A stretch of DNA of 20,000 nucleotides. It comes from an uncultured virus (IMG/VR IMGVR_UViG_3300046782_000572). Lineage: Duplodnaviria; Heunggongvirae; Uroviricota; Caudoviricetes. Both the position numbers and the translations under genes were made by a program. Numbering within the stretch: the stretch's first letter is position 1; each line of letters opens with the position of its first letter. Location: IMG/VR virus record IMGVR_UViG_3300046782_000572. The stretch is one strand, 5' to 3'. The notes beneath the pieces are model-generated. The model was not told the DNA's origin, made no database searches, and saw nothing but the letters and a program-made list of their open reading frames with translations. This document shows positions 7,294 to 18,334 of the stretch, one piece after another.

Positions 7294-7493
7294 TGCAGAA
7301 CCTCCCGTTCGCTTTCGATCTCGGCGACGCGCGCCATCAAGCTCGTCATCGCAGCATCTCGATCCGCGTCGTGATGATGGAGAAACCACGCGATCATGGT
7401 CGCAAGCATGCCCTCGCGGCCGTCATCGTTGAACGGTGCCAAGATATCGCGCATGACGTCGAGATCGCGATGGACACGGCGTTCCAATTTCAT
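7290..7493 (-). CDS. Hypothetical protein, 67 aa
   Basis: ATGA overlaps at both ends; AGGAG RBS. Confidence 0.65.
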
Positions 7494-8638
7494 GACGGCA
7501 TCTCCTTCAAAAACGCGAGCGCGGCCTGGACCTCCTTCGCCATCTCGTCAGTGTCAGCCGCGGTCATCTGAGCGCCGTTGCGCATCGTTCTCGCGTTCGC
7601 CCCGGTCCACCACGTGTCGAGCATCGCGGCATCCGCGGGTTTTGCGGCGGCGATGATCTGGCGCACCAGCAGCTTGAAAGTGTCGACATCCTTGGGCGGA
7701 CGCTTCTGCGCCATGCCGATCAGATCCCCGATGGTGGGTTCTGGCTCGGCCTGCGTATGCGACTCTTCGCCGGCGTCGTGTTCGACCACAGTGCCGTCGC
7801 CGGGCCGCGGGTCGCCGGGATCATCACCGCCGCCGGCGCCGAACTGCTCAAGCGCCGCCATCGCGCTGCGCGGCTGGCGTTTGGTGACCTCCTTGCCGCG
7901 CTCTTTCGCGCCCTCGAAATCATACAATTCATCGTCTCGGTGCAAGAGCGCGTCGAGATCACTCGATGATGGGAGTTGCTTTGCGTGCCGGCGAATGACC
8001 GTTTTCTTTGCCATCTCGCCGTAGGTAACGCGGTCGTGCCACGGCCCGCCCTTTTTTGCGCGAGAGAATTTTTGCCTGATCTCCTCGACCTGGCGGATCG
8101 TCATCACTTCGCGCGACAGCGTGCCATCCTTGTACTTGCAGATCGAATAGACGTGTGTGATAGGGCGCTCGGTGCCGCCGGTCAGCGCCGGCTTATGCAT
8201 GATATGCGGCTCGTCGCCGAGCTGATAATCGAACATGTCGCCGTCGCGCACCTCGCATGCCCACAGGTCGGCGATCTCGCCAGAGTTGCGTGCCTTCTTC
8301 CGAATGCCGGCGATCATCGGCATGTAGGTGGCTTGGTCGCTGCTTTTGCGTTGACCATCTTCGCCGCTTTCGCCGAAAGGCACGATCGCAGCCTCGCGGC
8401 CGTCAGGCAGCAAGCCGTCTTGTGCGCATTTCATGCAGGAATTGAAAATGCTCTGACGCGTGCAGGCGAGCAGCTTCGCGTTGTTTTGGATTGCAGTCAT
8501 CACCACGCGCATAAAACGCTCGACCGGAATGTGAGCGGGCAACGCATAAGAAAACTGCGGCCCCATCTTTTCAAGGTCGCGCCGGAATTGATCGAGGACG
8601 CTGAGCTGCTTGCCGGCCGGCTTGGTCTGTGTATCCAT
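7490..8638 (-). CDS. recT: RecT-family single-strand annealing recombinase, 382 aa
   Basis: ALPAHIPVERFMRV...CAQDGLLPDGREAAIVPF...ARNSGEI...GPW...MAKKTVIRR; AGGAGG RBS. Confidence 0.95.
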   Translation of the reverse strand: MDTQTKPAGKQLSVLDQFRRDLEKMGPQFSYALPAHIPVERFMRVVMTAIQNNAKLLACTRQSIFNSCMKCAQDGLLPDGREAAIVPFGESGEDGQRKSSDQATYMPMIAGIRKKARNSGEIADLWACEVRDGDMFDYQLGDEPHIMHKPALTGGTERPITHVYSICKYKDGTLSREVMTIRQVEEIRQKFSRAKKGGPWHDRVTYGEMAKKTVIRRHAKQLPSSSDLDALLHRDDELYDFEGAKERGKEVTKRQPRSAMAALEQFGAGGGDDPGDPRPGDGTVVEHDAGEESHTQAEPEPTIGDLIGMAQKRPPKDVDTFKLLVRQIIAAAKPADAAMLDTWWTGANARTMRNGAQMTAADTDEMAKEVQAALAFLKEMPS

Positions 8639-8662
8639 TTTTTCCCTCCTGTTTGAGTTTTC

Positions 8663-8694
8663 GACGGTCCAGGCGCATTTGCGCGCCCGCCGCC
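8663..8694 (-). other. GC-rich hairpin at the 3' end of the pentamer array
   Basis: Minus-strand RNA GGCGG-C-GGGCGCG-CAAA-UGCGCCU-GGA-CCGUC folds into a two-part stem; shares AGGCGCAT (plus strand) with the hairpin at 11601-11630. Confidence 0.55.
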
Positions 8695-8699
8695 TTCTC

Positions 8700-9995
8700 G
8701 CCTTGCCTGGACCCGCCTCAACTCGACTTGCCTCGACCCGACAAGCCGGGCCACGCCGGCCTCACCAGACCACGCCGCCCGCGCAGTGCCACGCCGTGCC
8801 ACGCCCCGCATTGCTGTGCCGAGCAACGCCGGCCACGCCATGCCTTGCAGTCCAAGCACTGCCTCGTCGCGCCTTGCCCGGCCGCGCCGGCCGTGCCCCG
8901 CCACGCGCGGCCACGCCATCCCAGGCCTCACCGCGCCGTTCCCCGCCAAGCCGCGCCCCGCCGGCCAAGACCGCCCCGCCCGGCCTTGCCGTGCCGCGCC
9001 GCGCCACCCCCGGCCTCGCCGGCCATGCCACGCCGGACCTTGCGTTGCCGCGACCAGCCAAGCACCGTCCCGCCTCGCCGGCCACGTCTTGCCGGACCTT
9101 GCCCAGCCTCGTCTCGCCACGCACAGCCGCCGACATGCCAAGCCCGCCCCGCCTCGCCTCTGCCGGCCCTCCATGACCCCCGGCCTCGCCGGCCGCGCCA
9201 GCCCACGCCCCGCATCGCCCTGCCGGGCCTTGCCCGGCCGCGCCGGCCAAGCCATGCACCGCCTTTGCCCGTCCCGCATCGCCATGCCCCGCCGCGCCGG
9301 CCCCGCACTGCACGGCCTGGACGCGCGAGGACGCCAAGCCGGCCGCGCCAAGCCCGGCCCCAACCGAGCCGCGCCGGCCTCGCACGCTCCGCCGGGACTG
9401 GCCCACCCCGGCCAAGCCTTGCCACGCCGGCCAAGCCCTGCCTGGGCACGCACTGTTCCGCCGCGCTGTGCCAGACCGTGCCAAGCCAAGCCGAGCCGGC
9501 CCAGCCGGTGCACTGCCGGCCTCGCCAGGACGTGACGGGCCATGCCAGGGTCGGCCGTGCCAGGGCATTTCCCGCCGTGCCTTGTCTGCCGCCGGCCTCG
9601 CCGGCCAAGCCAAGCCGAGCACTGGCAGGCACAGCATCGCGTAGCCGCGCCTCGCTCTGCCGCGCCGCGCCGGGCCGGCCACGCCCTGCCATGCCAGGAC
9701 AGGCCAACGCCATGCCATGACCCGCACGGTCACGCCGGCCTCGCGCGCCATGTCCGATCCGGTCTGGCCACGGCTCGCCCTGCCTCGGCTCGCCTCGCCT
9801 CGCCTGCCGAGCCAGCCCATCCCAGGCCCGGCCATGCCGAACCCGGCATCGCCCTGCCGGGCCACGGCTGGCCTCGCCCGGTCACGCCCGGTCAGACCAT
9901 GCCTGCCTTGCCACGCCGGCCATGCCTTGCACCGCCCAGCCTGGACTTGCTCTGCAGGGACCTGCCTCGCCTGCATTGCCTCGCTGGCCATGCTG
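8700..9995 (-). repeat. Non-coding array of 5-nt GGY-NN units in about 20 segments; putative guide-RNA array (VIPR-like)
   Basis: Plus strand parses as GCC-NN/ACC-NN pentamers; 20 exact GCCGGCC 4-nt slips at 8755, 8828, 8886, 8960, 9018, 9077, 9162, 9188, 9242, 9296, 9338, 9373, 9426, 9495, 9515, 9591, 9600, 9674, 9734, 9915; clean segments spaced 5n+4 (54, 59, 69, 74 nt); directly downstream of the RAMP-like and accessory genes. Confidence 0.9.
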
Positions 9996-10000
9996 CCTCT

Positions 10001-10534
10001 TCACACTGCTTTGCCGCTGGGTCTATCGCCCGGCGGTTTGCGCCGACCGCTGCCGGGAGGCGGCGGCCGTTTTCCACGATCCAGACGTTCCCGAATTGCG
10101 AGAACGTCCGAAAGCAAGGCTTCAAATTCCCTGCTAAGATCGAGCATGTGCGCGACCTGCCGCCCGCGATCGATGCCGGCCTCAAGGCGCACAAGCTCGT
10201 TTTCGATGATCTGGCGAGCATCCGCACGGCGTTGCGCTGCTTGTGTCAGCGCAACGTAGCCACCGCCGACCGGCGAACGGGGATCGTGAACGTAGTAGAT
10301 CGCCGTCGCTGGCCGCTCGTCGATTTCGACAACGACACGAACCTCGCGGATAAGTCGTCGCGCGGTGTCGAGACGGTGCTCGTGCGCCGCGCTGGCGTCA
10401 TTCCAGTCGAAATCATCGTGCAGAAGGTGCGATGGTTCGCGCGCCGCCTCGACGACGCGCTCAGGACGCACGACGCCGTCCTTGTCGGCCAGCTTGGTGA
10501 TGGCGTGCGCCTTGGAAGCTCGCGAGCGCATCAT
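10001..10534 (-). CDS. Conserved phage protein, accessory partner of the RAMP/Cas7-like gene, 177 aa
   Basis: GVVRPERVVEAAREPSHLLHDDFDWNDASAAHEHRLDTARRLIR motif; ATGA-coupled to 10531-11544; the array begins right after its stop. Confidence 0.85.
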   Translation of the reverse strand: MMRSRASKAHAITKLADKDGVVRPERVVEAAREPSHLLHDDFDWNDASAAHEHRLDTARRLIREVRVVVEIDERPATAIYYVHDPRSPVGGGYVALTQAAQRRADARQIIENELVRLEAGIDRGRQVAHMLDLSREFEALLSDVLAIRERLDRGKRPPPPGSGRRKPPGDRPSGKAV

Positions 10535-11544
10535 GCGAACTCACCAATGGCTGGTGGGCGGCGGCCGTTTGCCTTCGCCGCCAGGGCCGCGGTTTTGCGC
10601 GGCCGTCCGGGTTTGCGGCGCTCATTGGATTCGGCTGCGGCGACCAGCTCGGGGACCAGGGATCGCGGCTTCTTGCCTTTTCTCGCGTGCCCACTCGCAG
10701 ACGACGGAACCTCCATCTCGCGGCGCCGCGTCTCGGTTTCGAACCACGCCAACAGCTCTTCCGACTCTTCGTCGTAACATATCGGCGACGCCAGCGCCGC
10801 GTCCTGGGGCTTGCGGCCCATGGTGCGCATGACCTCGGCGAACTGCTTGTCGTGCTCGTTGACCAGCATAAATTGACCGTAAGAGCCGGCTCCCTTCTCA
10901 GGGCGCCAATCGCCGACCCCCATGATGATGCCGCCCGCGCCAGCGAGGTTGGCGACATCGCGTTCCTTGATGAGGCTGCTAACGAAGCGCACCGGCAGCA
11001 CTGCGCACCACTTTTCGATGATCGCGCGGGTGCGAATGTTCGGCGTCTTGTTGATGCCGCCTTCGCGCACCACCGACATGAACAGCTTCGGCACGCCATA
11101 GATCGGGATATCAACTTCGGGGATGCTGGTGAGCTGGCCCACCGCGGTCTTGGTGGCGCCCGGGATGCGCAGCGCCGCATCGGTGATTGCGCTCTTGAAC
11201 GCGCCGGCCGGCATATGCAGGCGCGCCGCGCGGCTGTCGTCGCGAGTGCGATAGACCGACGCCTGAAACTCGGCGACCGGATCATGCTTCAACGTCGATT
11301 GTTTTTCGGCGTCGTTCTTCTTGCGGTCCGGGAAAAGCAGTTGCTGCCGCGCCTTTTCCGACATGCGGTGCATAATCAGCGGCGTAGTGCCGAGCAGATA
11401 AAACTTAACAAGCCCCATTTTCAATTCCATGATCTCGATACTCTCGGGGAGGGGCTTTTTCCCGGTCGCGAAGGGTTTTCCCGACGACCAATCAATTGCA
11501 TCCGATGTCGATGTCTTCGTTTCAGTCTTTGGCTTGCGTCCCAT
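10531..11544 (-). CDS. RAMP/Cas7-like RNA-binding protein (putative Vipr-type effector), 337 aa
   Basis: First strand LLGTTPLIMH, MPAGAFKSAI helix, RTRAIIEKW strand, Gly-rich loop GVGDWRPEKGAGSYGQF; AGGAGG RBS at 11551-11556; no other cas genes in the window. Confidence 0.8.
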   Translation of the reverse strand: MGRKPKTETKTSTSDAIDWSSGKPFATGKKPLPESIEIMELKMGLVKFYLLGTTPLIMHRMSEKARQQLLFPDRKKNDAEKQSTLKHDPVAEFQASVYRTRDDSRAARLHMPAGAFKSAITDAALRIPGATKTAVGQLTSIPEVDIPIYGVPKLFMSVVREGGINKTPNIRTRAIIEKWCAVLPVRFVSSLIKERDVANLAGAGGIIMGVGDWRPEKGAGSYGQFMLVNEHDKQFAEVMRTMGRKPQDAALASPICYDEESEELLAWFETETRRREMEVPSSASGHARKGKKPRSLVPELVAAAESNERRKPGRPRKTAALAAKANGRRPPAIGEFA

Positions 11545-11600
11545 CTGGTTCCTCCTGTGGGGTGCGCGTGATCGAGTCGCCTCACGCTGGCGTTATTAGC

Positions 11601-11703
11601 GGGCAGAGGCGCATCACTGCGGCTCTGCCCAACGCGGGGCCTAGACATGTCAGGCCGTGACAGGCCAAGCCCCGCCCGGCACCGCCTAGCCTCGCCACGC
11701 ATT
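11601..11703 (-). ncRNA. Orphan GGY-NN unit (13 in-phase pentamers) plus 3' hairpin
   Basis: 11639-11703 reads gccTA gacAT gtcAG gccGT gacAG gccAA gccCC gccCG gcaCC gccTA gccTC gccAC gcaTT; hairpin GGGCAGAG-g-CGCA-tcac-TGCG-g-CTCTGCCC at 11601-11630. Confidence 0.75.
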
Positions 11704-12642
11704 TCATTCTGCATCCTCCTTAAGCCGCTGCGTTCTCAGCACGCGAAAACTAGTCGCGGCCTGCAGGCGTTCTTTTCTGTGAGCAGTTTTCAAACTGACG
11801 CGCCAACCGTGGATCAGTGCGGCTTCGAAATCGCCGATCTTGTCTTTCAACTCTGTTTCCGCCTCAACCTTGGCGGCTTCAGCCTCTCTGATGATGGCGG
11901 CCTGCCGTTCGCGTTCCTCGAGAAGGAAAGCCGCGCGATTGTCGCGTGTCAGATCGATGATCGAGCCCTCAACCTCGCGCGGGTAGATCAAGCGCAACAG
12001 ATCGCCGTCGCGGCTGAAATCGAGTGCTGGCACGACGCCGGCTGCAACAGCATCCCAGAATTGCTTAACGGCGACGCGAAGTTTGTGCTCGGTCGCCTTA
12101 TGCCGCGGAATCTCGGCGATGTACGTATCCCAAGCAAAGTCGCCGACGACGAGCACGGCGACAGCGCCGAAGGCAGCGTCCGCGAGCATCATCTCGGTGA
12201 GGTTTTGCAAAACGATCCAGAGCGGCGGCGTGGGCTCGTCGTCGTCTTCGCCGAGCCATTTCTTCGCAAACGCTCGCGGGTTCACGGTTTTGGTCTGCAG
12301 CACGCCCGGCCCGCGCGGATCGCCTTGGATGACGAAGTCTGGGGTGCAGCCAAGCCGTGCGTGCGGATCGCGTAGATATTCGGTGTTTTTGACGACGTTC
12401 CATTCGGGCCGCAGCTTCGCGACTTTGGCGCCGATGAAGTCTTCCAAATCGTTGCCGCGACGAACGACGCTCGACTCCGGGTTAGGTCCGGGCAGCTCCA
12501 AGCCGCACTTCTCGGCATGCAGACCGGCGATGGTCTGCCAGGGATGCACGCCGAACAGCGCGCCTACTACGGACGCCGTCACGTCATTGCGGCGCAAGCC
12601 GAGCCACTGTTCGCGTGAAGTGATTGGAATCCGCTCGATCAT
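11704..12642 (-). CDS. YqaJ-like viral recombinase exonuclease (lambda exonuclease family), 312 aa
   Basis: REQWLGLRRNDVTASVVGALFGVHPW...RRGNDLE...LGCTPDF...LQTKT; partner of RecT. Confidence 0.92.
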   Translation of the reverse strand: MIERIPITSREQWLGLRRNDVTASVVGALFGVHPWQTIAGLHAEKCGLELPGPNPESSVVRRGNDLEDFIGAKVAKLRPEWNVVKNTEYLRDPHARLGCTPDFVIQGDPRGPGVLQTKTVNPRAFAKKWLGEDDDEPTPPLWIVLQNLTEMMLADAAFGAVAVLVVGDFAWDTYIAEIPRHKATEHKLRVAVKQFWDAVAAGVVPALDFSRDGDLLRLIYPREVEGSIIDLTRDNRAAFLLEERERQAAIIREAEAAKVEAETELKDKIGDFEAALIHGWRVSLKTAHRKERLQAATSFRVLRTQRLKEDAE

Positions 12643-12903: not shown

Positions 12904-13263
12904 ATGGAACAGTATCCTCGCGCGGCTGATCTGCGACGCCTTCTGCTAGAGCGTTGCGCGAGCTACAGCGAGGCGACAGGCATCGCGCTAACGGGCGTGT
13001 CGGTGCTGCTGGTTAACTCCCCAAAATATCTCGGCGGCCTCGCGAGCGGCAAAACCAAGCTGACCGACGTGGCCTATGACCGTTGCATGACACGGCTCGA
13101 CGAGCTGTTCAAAGAACTTGAAGGGGACAGATCCCATGACGACACTGAACAACGATCTCGCGACGAAAGCAGCGCCATTCCTGCAGCGGATCGAGGAAAT
13201 CGACGAGGAACTGGACTCCGAAAAAGGGGCGTACATGGCGACGTGCCGGACGCTGCGGAGTAG
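12904..13263 (+). CDS. Cro-like small transcriptional regulator
   Basis: LLLERCASYSEATGIALTGVSVLLVNSPKYLGGLASGK resembles alphaproteobacterial phage Cro-like proteins; first gene of the rightward block; start uncertain; tail overlaps next gene. Confidence 0.6.
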   Translation: MEQYPRAADLRRLLLERCASYSEATGIALTGVSVLLVNSPKYLGGLASGKTKLTDVAYDRCMTRLDELFKELEGDRSHDDTEQRSRDESSAIPAADRGNRRGTGLRKRGVHGDVPDAAE

Positions 13264-13507
13264 GCGCAAGGACGTTTTCGGCGACGCGAAGGGCGCCGGC
13301 ATTGCGGTAAAGCCGCTTAAGGCCGTCGTGAAGCGCCGCAAGCTCGAAAACAAGATCGCGGGGCTCCCGAGCGAGTTCGACATCGATGAAAGCGCGCAAT
13401 ATGAAGCTCTTGCAGCGGCCTTCGCCGGAACCCCGTTTGGCGATTTCGCCGCTGAGCGAGCGAACGGCCCGCGCAGCGACGACGCGGTAGATCAGCTCGG
13501 CGTCTAA
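13136..13507 (+). CDS. GapR/DUF2312-like DNA-binding protein, 123 aa
   Basis: FLQRIEEIDEE...RKDVFGDAKGAGIAVKPLKAVVKRRK aligns with the GapR pattern FIERIERLEEE...KDVYAEAKGxGFDVKALRxIVRLRK. Confidence 0.75.
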   Translation: MTTLNNDLATKAAPFLQRIEEIDEELDSEKGAYMATCRTLRSRRKDVFGDAKGAGIAVKPLKAVVKRRKLENKIAGLPSEFDIDESAQYEALAAAFAGTPFGDFAAERANGPRSDDAVDQLGV

Positions 13508-13556: not shown

Positions 13557-14795
13557 ATGCCACCACGACCACTTGATCTTGTCGGCCAACGGTTCGGACG
13601 ACTGACCGCCATCGAATTGATGGCTGATCGGATTCGCGGTTCCGCAGCGTGGCGCTGTAAGTGTGACTGCGGCGGCGAGAAGATCATTCCGACCAATTCT
13701 TTGCGGTATGGCAATTCACGCTCGTGCGGATGTCTGCATGCCGCGGGTACACGAAGACAAGTGGATGCAGTAGGGCAGCGGTTTGGGAGGCTGGTTGTTT
13801 TACGGGAGGCTGCACGCGAGAAGGATCGTGTCGACCACAGAGCTCAGCGACGTCTATGGTGTCGCTGTGATTGCGGAAAGGAGATTTCGGTTTTGCATCG
13901 AAGTCTTCGGCGTGGTGTAACGACGAGTTGCGGTTGCAATATAGTGGCATTGGTGCGAGCGGCGCAAACAACGCACGGCGACGCCTCATTTTATCAGCCG
14001 ACTGCCGAATATCGTTGCTGGCAGACCATGAAACAACGGTGCGAAAATCCGAACCAAATCGCATGGGTTTATTATGGCGGGCGTGGCATCCGCGTTTGCG
14101 AGCGATGGCGGTGCAGCTTCGAGAATTTCCTTGCTGACATGGGCCGCAAACCTTCGGCTGCGCATTCGATAGATCGATACCCAGACAATGATGGTCACTA
14201 TGAGCCATCAAACTGTCGATGGGCGACTCCGCGAGAGCAGGCCCTCAACAAAGTGCGGAGAGAGCATATGATTTTCCCCAACTACAAAGGTGGACCGATC
14301 TTGGCGGTCGATCCGGCGACCGTCAGCGGTTTTGCTTTTGGCAGACCGGGTGAAACGCCTATTCTTGAGACGATCAAGTTTGGTCGTCCAGGAGACGATC
14401 ATCCAAATATCTTCGGCCGCGCTGTGCGCTGGATGGCCACACGCTTGGCTGATGGTGCAGTCAGGCCGGAAGCGGTCATCCTGGAGTCCTTGGTCGCAAA
14501 ATACGATAAATCTCTGCAATCTGGATTATGGGGTATTTTTACAGGCATTGCTCACACCAAAGGCATCCCTGTTTTTGAAGTCTCAGTGCAAACGTGGCGC
14601 GCCTTTGTTCTCGGCGACGGTAAATTAAAAAAGGATGTTGCCAAAGCCCGCGCTCTTCAGTTGTGCGGCCATTTGGGATGGGCAGCATCGGACCACAACG
14701 CCGCTGAGGCGGCTGGGATTTGGCTTTGGGCGTGCTCCCAGGTCGAGCCGAAGAGCGTGCCTCGCATTCCGCTATTCATGAGAGGTGCAGCATGA
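13557..14795 (+). CDS. HNH-type homing-endonuclease-like protein fused in frame to a RuvC-like resolvase, 412 aa
   Basis: Two GQRFGRL/CxCDCG/SCGC repeats and SIDRYPDNDGHYEPSNCRWAT, then from Met 14268 ILAVDPATVSGFA...VILES...DHNAAEAAGIW. Confidence 0.85.
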   Translation: MPPRPLDLVGQRFGRLTAIELMADRIRGSAAWRCKCDCGGEKIIPTNSLRYGNSRSCGCLHAAGTRRQVDAVGQRFGRLVVLREAAREKDRVDHRAQRRLWCRCDCGKEISVLHRSLRRGVTTSCGCNIVALVRAAQTTHGDASFYQPTAEYRCWQTMKQRCENPNQIAWVYYGGRGIRVCERWRCSFENFLADMGRKPSAAHSIDRYPDNDGHYEPSNCRWATPREQALNKVRREHMIFPNYKGGPILAVDPATVSGFAFGRPGETPILETIKFGRPGDDHPNIFGRAVRWMATRLADGAVRPEAVILESLVAKYDKSLQSGLWGIFTGIAHTKGIPVFEVSVQTWRAFVLGDGKLKKDVAKARALQLCGHLGWAASDHNAAEAAGIWLWACSQVEPKSVPRIPLFMRGAA

Positions 14796-17521: not shown

Positions 17522-18334
17522 ATGAATCGCTGGTTTCGGGTTTACGAAAACCTTCTCGACGACCCGAAGGTGCAACGTCTGCCCGGAGAGCTGTTCAAAA
17601 TGCTGCTGAACTTATGGTGCCTGACTTCTCGAAACGACGGTTTTCTGCCACCGCTAGACGACATTGCCTTTGCCGTTCGGCTCGATCAAAGCGACTGCGA
17701 TAATGCTCTGAAAGAATTGCAAAAACGTGGATTGATCGACAACGCTTCGGGGCGGCTCAAGCCGCACAATTGGGAGGGACGCCAATTCAGAAGCGACGTT
17801 TCAACAGAGAGGGTTAAGAAGTTTCGGAAACGAAAACGAAACGGCAGCGAAACGGCGAGTGAAACGCCCCCAGAGAGAGATACAGATACAGATACAGATA
17901 CAGATACAGAATCAGAGGGAAGAGAAAGAGTCGCGCGCGCGACCCCCCCTGAAACGTTTCACTGGCCGAAAAACTATCGGAAGCAGTTCGAAGATGTGTA
18001 CCCGGTGCAGCGGGGAATGGCTGCTGGTTTGGCCGCCCTCGAAAAGGTCAAAGGGAAAGTATCGTTTGAATTTCTGCTTGGCCAAATACGCAAATACGAA
18101 GCAGCAAAGCCGCCAGACCGCGAATGGCTGAATCCAAAAACCTACCTCGAACAGGAGCGGTGGAATGACAAACCAGCACGCGCCAACGGCAAGCACGAGC
18201 GCCATGTCGCCGACGAACTCGCCGAGGAAGCTCGCCGATTTGAGAGCCAGAGTAGCGGCGCGGCTGTCCGTGTCGGAGGCGCTGAACTTGGTGGGGATCA
18301 TGCTCAAGTCGTACCCGGCAACAAACCAAGCTGA
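17522..18334 (+). CDS. Phage replication initiator protein, 270 aa
   Basis: WFRVYENLLDDPKV...STERVKKFRKRK...DTDTDTDT linker...YP...NPKTYLEQERWND; AGGTGG RBS. Confidence 0.8.
   Translation: MNRWFRVYENLLDDPKVQRLPGELFKMLLNLWCLTSRNDGFLPPLDDIAFAVRLDQSDCDNALKELQKRGLIDNASGRLKPHNWEGRQFRSDVSTERVKKFRKRKRNGSETASETPPERDTDTDTDTDTESEGRERVARATPPETFHWPKNYRKQFEDVYPVQRGMAAGLAALEKVKGKVSFEFLLGQIRKYEAAKPPDREWLNPKTYLEQERWNDKPARANGKHERHVADELAEEARRFESQSSGAAVRVGGAELGGDHAQVVPGNKPS
17795..17961. repeat. Putative origin iterons (GAAACG) and (GATACA)5 inside the initiator gene
   Basis: Clustered GAAACG copies at 17827-17866, TGAAACGTTTCA palindrome at 17950-17961, GATACA x5 at 17879-17908. Confidence 0.5.

Follow-up and report, generated by a model that had tools for sequence, protein, structure and literature searches.

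Class 1 CRISPR systems assemble a RAMP filament, the Cas7-Csm3 backbone, on a guide, and their modular guides are gained and lost. VIPR, a gene silencer related to CRISPR, was first described in 2026, and a 'staggered' layout has been reported for it (Yoon et al., 2026). In the published family, each GGY-NN pentamer is bound by one Vipr protomer, and the NN dinucleotides read the DNA while skipping one base, resulting in silencing. According to passages of the structure paper, a thumb arginine and G-loop residues grip the GGY bases (10.64898/2026.04.26.720927). Each guide of type II VIPR ends in a structured 3' tail or pseudoknot (passages of 10.64898/2026.04.26.720927 and 10.64898/2026.10.15.759431). 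In staggered arrays, vrRNAs are placed at positions overlapping by 1 nt, the end of one being the start of the next (10.64898/2026.04.26.720920, legend of fig. S18), and such an overlap of consecutive vrRNAs implies a 4-nt step within a 5-nt repeat.

In this study, we describe a locus in a window of 20,000 nt, meaning the whole stretch of DNA that was analysed, from an uncultured virus of the Caudoviricetes (IMG/VR IMGVR_UViG_3300046782_000572). We estimate a probability of about 0.85 that it is a temperate phage VIPR locus composed of vipr, an accessory gene and a staggered minus-strand vrRNA array, the mechanistic steps proposed below included. Since the VIPR system and the staggered layout are already published, the locus itself is not a discovery. 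What appears to be new is the rare GGCC delimiter, together with comparative support for its boundary role and for recombination. Array turnover, chimeric segments and internal 4-nt units that are read were not found in the text of 10.64898/2026.04.26.720920, whose figures and supplements may bear on this novelty.

The locus and its genes

The predicted components of the locus and the two genes that flank it are as follows:

10531..11544, minus strand: vipr gene, 337 aa, RAMP/Cas7-like, with a core of about 250 aa and basic tails (ORF analysis)
10001..10534, minus strand: accessory (vap-like) gene, 177 aa, whose ORF overlaps the stop codon of vipr; match to phrog_15946, of unknown function, at E 1e-18
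8690..9990, minus strand: proposed staggered vrRNA array, about 260 GGY-NN-type pentamers with a GGCC-slip core at 8755-9921 (phase parses)
7490..8638, minus strand: gene for a RecT annealase, immediately downstream of the array; Pfam RecT, E 2e-39
11704..12642, minus strand: YqaJ/RecE-like exonuclease gene, directly upstream of vipr; Pfam YqaJ, E 2e-12; phrog_434

The minimal content of a VIPR locus, a phage-borne vipr gene with one accessory gene, is found here, and integrase, RecT, YqaJ and replication initiator genes near the array (ORF, phrog and Pfam assignments) give the phage context. Only its position suggests that the 177-aa gene is a vap: a Pfam scan of the protein returned no match, and it was not matched to a named vap family. 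A promoter and terminator scan of the locus found none on the minus strand. The VIPR locus splits a recombination pair, the YqaJ/RecE-like and RecT genes (window 7490-12642). Elsewhere in the window, a GapR-like DNA-binding gene (13118-13507, Pfam E 7e-6) presumably suggests an alphaproteobacterial host; a 412-aa ORF (13557-14795) is one that we take, from motifs recognised by eye, to carry AP2/HNH-like repeats and a RuvC-like tail; and the replication initiator gene contains a 6-nt tandem repeat of 5.5 copies (17878-17916), which encodes a DT repeat.

SUSP1 Vipr was the sole PDB sequence match of the 337-aa protein at E up to 1 (E 0.75). A profile built from 120 sequences of the Vipr family matched SUSP1 Vipr at E 3.3e-6 over a region covering the thumb arginine and the G-loop, and counterparts of SUSP1 R138, D177, W178 and R179 are invariant or aligned in the family of the window protein. 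The top Foldseek matches of an AF2 model (pLDDT 85) were CRISPR type III/VII RAMP complexes. With a RAMP fold, a thumb and a G-loop encoded outside a CRISPR locus, the gene product is, as judged from sequence and predicted structure, Vipr, and the locus a VIPR system. Two homologues of the window Vipr (P0002 and P0003) show 80% and 95% identity, the arrays of both lying outside our comparison; a metagenome scan for close relatives found none, its 23 loci reaching at most 51% identity.

A pentamer array interrupted by four-base slips

The informative strand of the array is the minus strand, on which it forms a run of adjacent GGY-NN pentamers as in VIPR. GGC or GGT begins 138 of 205 pentamers, TGC, GAC and GTC are common variants, and NN is variable. 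The plus-strand motif GCCGGCC corresponds to a 4-nt unit, GGCC, followed by GGC. It occurs 20 times in the array (at 8755, 8828, 8886, 8960, 9018, 9077, 9162, 9188, 9242, 9296, 9338, 9373, 9426, 9495, 9515, 9591, 9600, 9674, 9734 and 9915) and the remaining 18,833 nt of the window contain 8 copies; 300 dinucleotide shuffles yielded a mean of 1.8 and a maximum of 7. Two features summarize this punctuation:

8755..9921, minus strand: GGCC four-base slips, n = 20 (GCCGGCC on the plus strand), putative guide boundaries
9741..9917, minus strand: 36-unit interval without a GGCC slip, containing the four-base units GGCA (9907, 9808) and GGCG (9749)

An earlier note on this DNA had counted GCCGGCC as 20 breaks of the 5-nt phase. 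The 20 copies are real, but an unbiased phase parse accepts 19 of them as slips (9162-9168 keeps the phase) and detects another 17 irregular units within 8690-10000. Among four-base steps from GGY to GGY, 20 of 27 are GGCC, and the phase is undisturbed for 4 units on each side of 12 of the 20 sites, the other 8 being without clean flanks. The clean segments of 10-14 pentamers described in the same note account for 6 of the 19 inter-slip intervals; 5 others have 10-14 units including one internal irregular unit, which makes 11 of 19 guide-sized, and 8 are short or irregular. All four irregular zones that it listed were recovered, but the 36-unit interval 9917-9741 had been overlooked. The NN composition in the window fits codon positions 1-2 best (rho 0.75) and is weak evidence, because antisense positions 2-3 fit nearly equally (rho 0.70).

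Slips as guide boundaries in related arrays

The comparison set comprised 157 loci of relatives, with 149 unique arrays. GGY-NN-type arrays lie near Vipr homologues in 132 of the 158 sequences examined, duplicates included. A GGC-N slip is present in 138 of the 149 arrays, the dominant form being GGCA in 95, GGCG in 31, GGCT in 9 and GGCC in 3. Clean inner segments hold 8-12 pentamers in 384 of 536 cases, with a mode of 9-11, and 195 more segments carry an internal irregular unit. Of the blocks common to related arrays, 23 of 39 have their start at a slip and 18 of 38 their end, against an expected 17%, in pairs that are not independent. The spacing mode, these block ends and target matches that run from slip to slip (see below) support the role of segment boundary that the earlier note had proposed for the slip, as far as sequence comparison can tell, and the slips delimit units that match targets. 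Guide-sized slip spacing with slip-to-slip targets is the pattern of consecutive guides offset by 1 nt, in keeping with published staggered arrays.

The fourth base of the slip tends to be uniform within a locus (purity 0.88 vs 0.64 when shuffled, 80 loci). On the Vipr tree it undergoes 7 changes vs 21.9 when shuffled (79 rows), a clustering that kinship alone gives. Five GGCA loci form a supported group with the window, whose GGCC is therefore probably derived. Two loci, L047 and L057, have Vipr proteins that are 94% identical and dominant slips of GGCA and GGCC, respectively, and the L109 array mixes 18 GGCA with 10 GGCC slips; the slip base can therefore switch quickly. Loci with a distant Vipr (L152-L157, 23-34% identity) are punctuated differently: four-base slips are scarce in their arrays and irregular units of other kinds prevail, as in L154, with 0 four-base and 8 other irregular units.

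Guide targets

A total of 531 slip-bounded segments were decoded and searched against 146 array-masked loci (3.45 Mb, both strands). Under a 1-nt skip, 5 of the 531 guides match foreign genes at E<1e-3, compared with 0 for skips of 0, 2 and 3 and for shuffled guides; the remaining 526 had no match at this threshold in the 146 loci. In the six best matches the segment is filled, 11 of 12 flanking dinucleotides mismatch, and the 3' slip matches in none. Among the identified targets are a prohead protease gene (L058, Pfam) and, in other vipr genes, the thumb region; the sixth-best match is to a methyltransferase gene. The 1-nt skip on the wobble base, as in VIPR, is found in the family and in one probable match among the four window guides scanned.

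Two of the five significant matches contain an internal 4- or 6-nt unit that is read by its last two bases, and when internal irregular units were dropped before decoding, 0 of 111 guides were left at E<0.1. These two cases, both in relatives, suggest a second rule, by which recurring slips would delimit guides and sporadic internal 4- or 6-nt units would be read; scans of window guides against IMG/VR did not confirm the reading of internal units.

Guides of the L034:10817 array and of the L091/L103 arrays match vipr of other phages (thumb in L086, L109 and L080), and a weaker guide match to a vipr gene was noted in L098 (E 0.05). The L085 and L113 arrays converge on one methyltransferase site in L076/L112, and 8 dinucleotides of an L076 guide match a gene in L085, L113 and L112, of which L112 has the same array as L076. 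From these matches, mutual and self targeting among the four loci is possible.

In the window, one guide has a candidate target:

8893..8962, minus strand: clean guide of 14 pentamers; its probable target is a DUF2800 gene (PD-(D/E)XK nuclease) in an integrase/PolA element

A 9-dinucleotide pattern from this guide, chosen after a weaker local match to a nuclease gene, was run against IMG/VR and found three loci, two of them near-identical (L158/L159) and the third with 9 mismatches. At L158/L159, the guide agrees with the gene at 25 of its 28 NN bases, in codon frame, and the skipped base is the wobble base. The pattern itself fixed 18 of the 25 matched bases; of the 10 others 7 match, with a probability of about 0.006 (binomial, before allowing for four scans). 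The matched gene belongs to DUF2800 (Pfam) and lies in an element that also encodes an integrase, PolA and a DUF5906 protein. When the whole array was aligned to the target blind to boundaries, the alignment began with the pentamer that follows the slip (8962) and stopped one unit short of the next slip; its score of 23.5, against shuffled maxima of 12-18, is inflated by the selection of the target. The guide therefore has a probable, sequence-predicted target in the nuclease gene of a competing mobile element.

Three other window segments were scanned against IMG/VR by pattern. Segment 9298 had 0 matches; segment 8830 had 32, the best with 5 of 12 outside bases, and segment 9676 had 6, the best with 4 of 12, none of which extends. 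The other window guides had no match in L161-L164, and against the 146 Vipr-neighbourhood loci the best matches of clean guides carry 4-9 mismatches.

Array turnover and the origin of guides

Exact repeats in the window array include two pairs on which the earlier note had commented:

8871..8892: 22-bp exact repeat, copy 1, comprising the slip and the first 3 pentamers
9227..9248: 22-bp exact repeat, copy 2, comprising the slip and the first 3 pentamers
9006..9024: 19-bp exact repeat, copy 1 (sequence comparison)
9176..9194: 19-bp exact repeat, copy 2, heading a 26-nt truncated segment

These pairs had been described as spanning boundaries. They are exact and correctly placed, but on the minus strand they begin at the slip rather than straddle it, and 5 of the 7 exact repeats of at least 15 nt begin at a slip or 1 nt before. 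The 7 repeats compare with 1.4-2.8 expected, those of at least 17 nt number 5 vs 0.5-0.75 (P at most 0.003), and the longest, of 22 nt, has a P of 0.01-0.03 (300 shuffles and three nulls in each case). As no self-similar block in the window exceeds chance at the level of the variable dinucleotides (0 vs 0.05), the exact repeats are modest evidence for recombination. Recombination is shown better by a 159-nt indel between strains and by chimeras in relatives than by the two exact repeats. The differences between strains map as follows:

9688..9694: 159-nt length polymorphism with a 7-nt overlap, located two pentamers to the 5' side of the 9680 slip
9449..9473: four strain substitutions clustered in one guide (run X20), three at NN and one in the scaffold
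9780..9781: both NN bases of one pentamer changed (runs X10 and X20)

Contigs of runs X10 and X20 carry the additional 159 nt at 9688-9694, and a contig of run X19 (spanning 9384-10280) has the window form. The breakpoint of this strain difference is inside a segment and not at a slip; lying two pentamers before the slip, it would fuse two guides. All 6 listed strain substitutions are in the array, 5 of them at NN, and one more difference per contig is unplaced. A search for donors found none for the 9449-9473 cluster and, for the 9780-9781 variant, a 17-nt neighbour match, which is weak in such repetitive sequence. A join of 8962 to 9675 in run X10 was rejected as a deletion and taken as another array, because the contig has 316 nt, sides of 21 nt and unlike flanks. 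Window positions 8972-9005 recur (34 nt, 2 differences) in a different array-bearing contig of runs X10, X20 and X22, also with unlike flanks, either as a shared guide fragment or by chance.

In relatives, three loci (L073, L074 and L077) have a Vipr identical over 250 columns, yet only 5-8 of their 11-18 segments are common. The 83 segments of a clade of seven loci (seven phages) fall into 44 families, with changes of order, and 7 end-anchored chimeric segment pairs were found vs 0.05 expected. Among the 44 families, 26 are singletons and 19 are without a recognisable parent (no end-anchored partner). Substitutions in shared segments are distributed over the five positions as 10, 10, 14, 8 and 9, with 17 of 51 at NN and no enrichment. 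Over 102 arrays there are 9 self-similar blocks vs 0.6, and new segments have a weak 5' bias (mean position 0.40 vs 0.55, P 0.035). The arrays show a turnover much faster than that of the protein, in which whole segments are evidently gained, lost and reordered at slips, and fused at internal scaffold microhomology.

New guides may arise only from duplications, deletions, chimeras and point mutations inside existing arrays, followed by selection, plus exchange with unsampled arrays, an explanation to which we give slightly less than even odds. It draws on the excess of chimeras and self-similar blocks, on the excess of exact repeats, on the 159-nt indel and on the position of 5 of the 6 listed substitutions between strains, which fall at NN; against it stand the 26 singleton families and the 19 without an end-anchored partner, the even spread of shared-segment substitutions over the five positions, and perfect matches of 8-11 dinucleotides to foreign genes, which are hard to reach by drift. 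The earlier note had attributed guide evolution to duplication, deletion and mutation. Indels and recombination are supported by the 159-nt polymorphism and the chimeras, but as a full account the proposal is weakened by the parentless families (19 of 44) and by NN changes that are not enriched (17 of 51).

A more speculative idea, which we regard as improbable, is that a whole new guide is written from its target between slips, with scaffold triplets interleaved and every third base dropped. Such templated writing would fit parentless families among near-identical Vipr proteins, perfect matches of 8-11 dinucleotides and slip-ended blocks; no enzyme that could do the writing was identified, and exchange with an unsampled pool of arrays accounts for the same data. 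If templated writing is true, the slip would be both an insertion site and a guide boundary, and the array would serve as an adaptive memory in which no spacer is captured. No description of how guides originate was found in the text of 10.64898/2026.04.26.720920 or in passages of 10.64898/2026.04.26.720927, 10.64898/2026.10.15.759431 and 10.64898/2026.10.21.760802.

Proposed mechanism and alternatives

In the preferred reading, GGCC (GGCA, GGCG or GGCT in relatives) is, as the sequences show, not read and separates guides that comprise about 9-14 pentamers and have different targets, and sporadic internal 4- or 6-nt units would keep the codon register and be read by their last two bases. The 4-nt slip would break the register of the filament, so that one transcript would yield separate guide complexes, and this transcript is most likely cut or trimmed at the slip. 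For at least one window guide, that at 8893-8962, silencing of the DUF2800 nuclease gene in a competing mobile element is probable, and the flanking RecE/RecT-type genes could drive the reshuffling of the array. A hairpin signal at the slip was rejected, since folding is -10.7 at slips vs -11.7 kcal/mol at mid-segment in 326 segments of relatives; in 6 window segments the two are equal.

Alternatively, slips may bound guides on an RNA that stays uncut, a long transcript on which several Vipr filaments would stop at register breaks (a multiplexed RNP). We consider this rather unlikely. It is compatible with all present sequence evidence, including the absence of a tail, ribozyme or hairpin at slips in the folding comparison, and the sRNA-seq confirmation given in the text of 10.64898/2026.04.26.720920 covers only ribozyme and single-guide layouts. 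However, the legend of fig. S18 of the same paper speaks of 'individual processed vrRNAs', and the lineage-specific fourth base of the slip fits recognition of a sequence, a pattern that kinship alone would also cluster.

A more distant reading, disfavoured and very improbable, takes the slips as neutral scars of slippage or recombination in a pentamer repeat, with guides arbitrary in length. Copying could homogenise slip bases, and the 17 other irregular units in the window array and a 1-nt deletion polymorphism within a segment (L073 vs L074) are of the kind that this reading predicts, but spacing has a narrow mode at 9-11 pentamers, target matches fill the interval from slip to slip, shared blocks end at slips, and internal irregular units are read where slips are not. 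That the region is a low-complexity protein-coding ORF or a plain tandem repeat can practically be dismissed, given a 5-nt period with frequent frame-breaking slips, such arrays near Vipr homologues in 132 of 158 sequences and decoded matches to foreign genes, the long open frames on both strands following from high G+C.

If slips delimit guides, as in the preferred reading, RNA ends can be predicted from the slip positions. With a target predicted for one guide, and with strains of the phage that differ by 159 nt and by clusters of changes in guides, the questions of RNA ends and guide origin are testable at this locus.

Comparison with described systems

The window Vipr is linked to Cas7-Csm3 by its predicted RAMP fold (Foldseek). 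Unlike class 1 CRISPR arrays, the window has no repeat-spacer layout, its code is non-contiguous, and cas1-cas2 were not seen within it; the 5' bias of new segments in relatives is also weak.

With type II VIPR, as represented by SUSP1 and P. fulva in passages of 10.64898/2026.04.26.720927 and 10.64898/2026.10.15.759431, the locus shares the thumb Arg and the Asp-Trp-Arg of the G-loop, and the targets of its family are likewise competing elements and vipr genes. Unlike in type II, the window segments abut directly, with no tail between them and no folding signal at slips; the conserved structured 3' tail of type II is absent here.

The closest likeness is to staggered VIPR as described in the text and legends of 10.64898/2026.04.26.720920: a phage-borne vipr with one accessory gene, an array of GGY/NN pentamers, a 1-nt offset between guides of 9-16 repeats, and a skip of the wobble base. 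The Vipr described there has 202 aa, whereas that of the window has 337 aa. The window array is further distinguished by its GGCC slip (dominant in 3 of 138 arrays, GGCA being usual) and by about 19 segments, many of them irregular. If a 4-nt delimiter divides a single transcript into many guides, this would be a compact form of guide multiplexing in VIPR.
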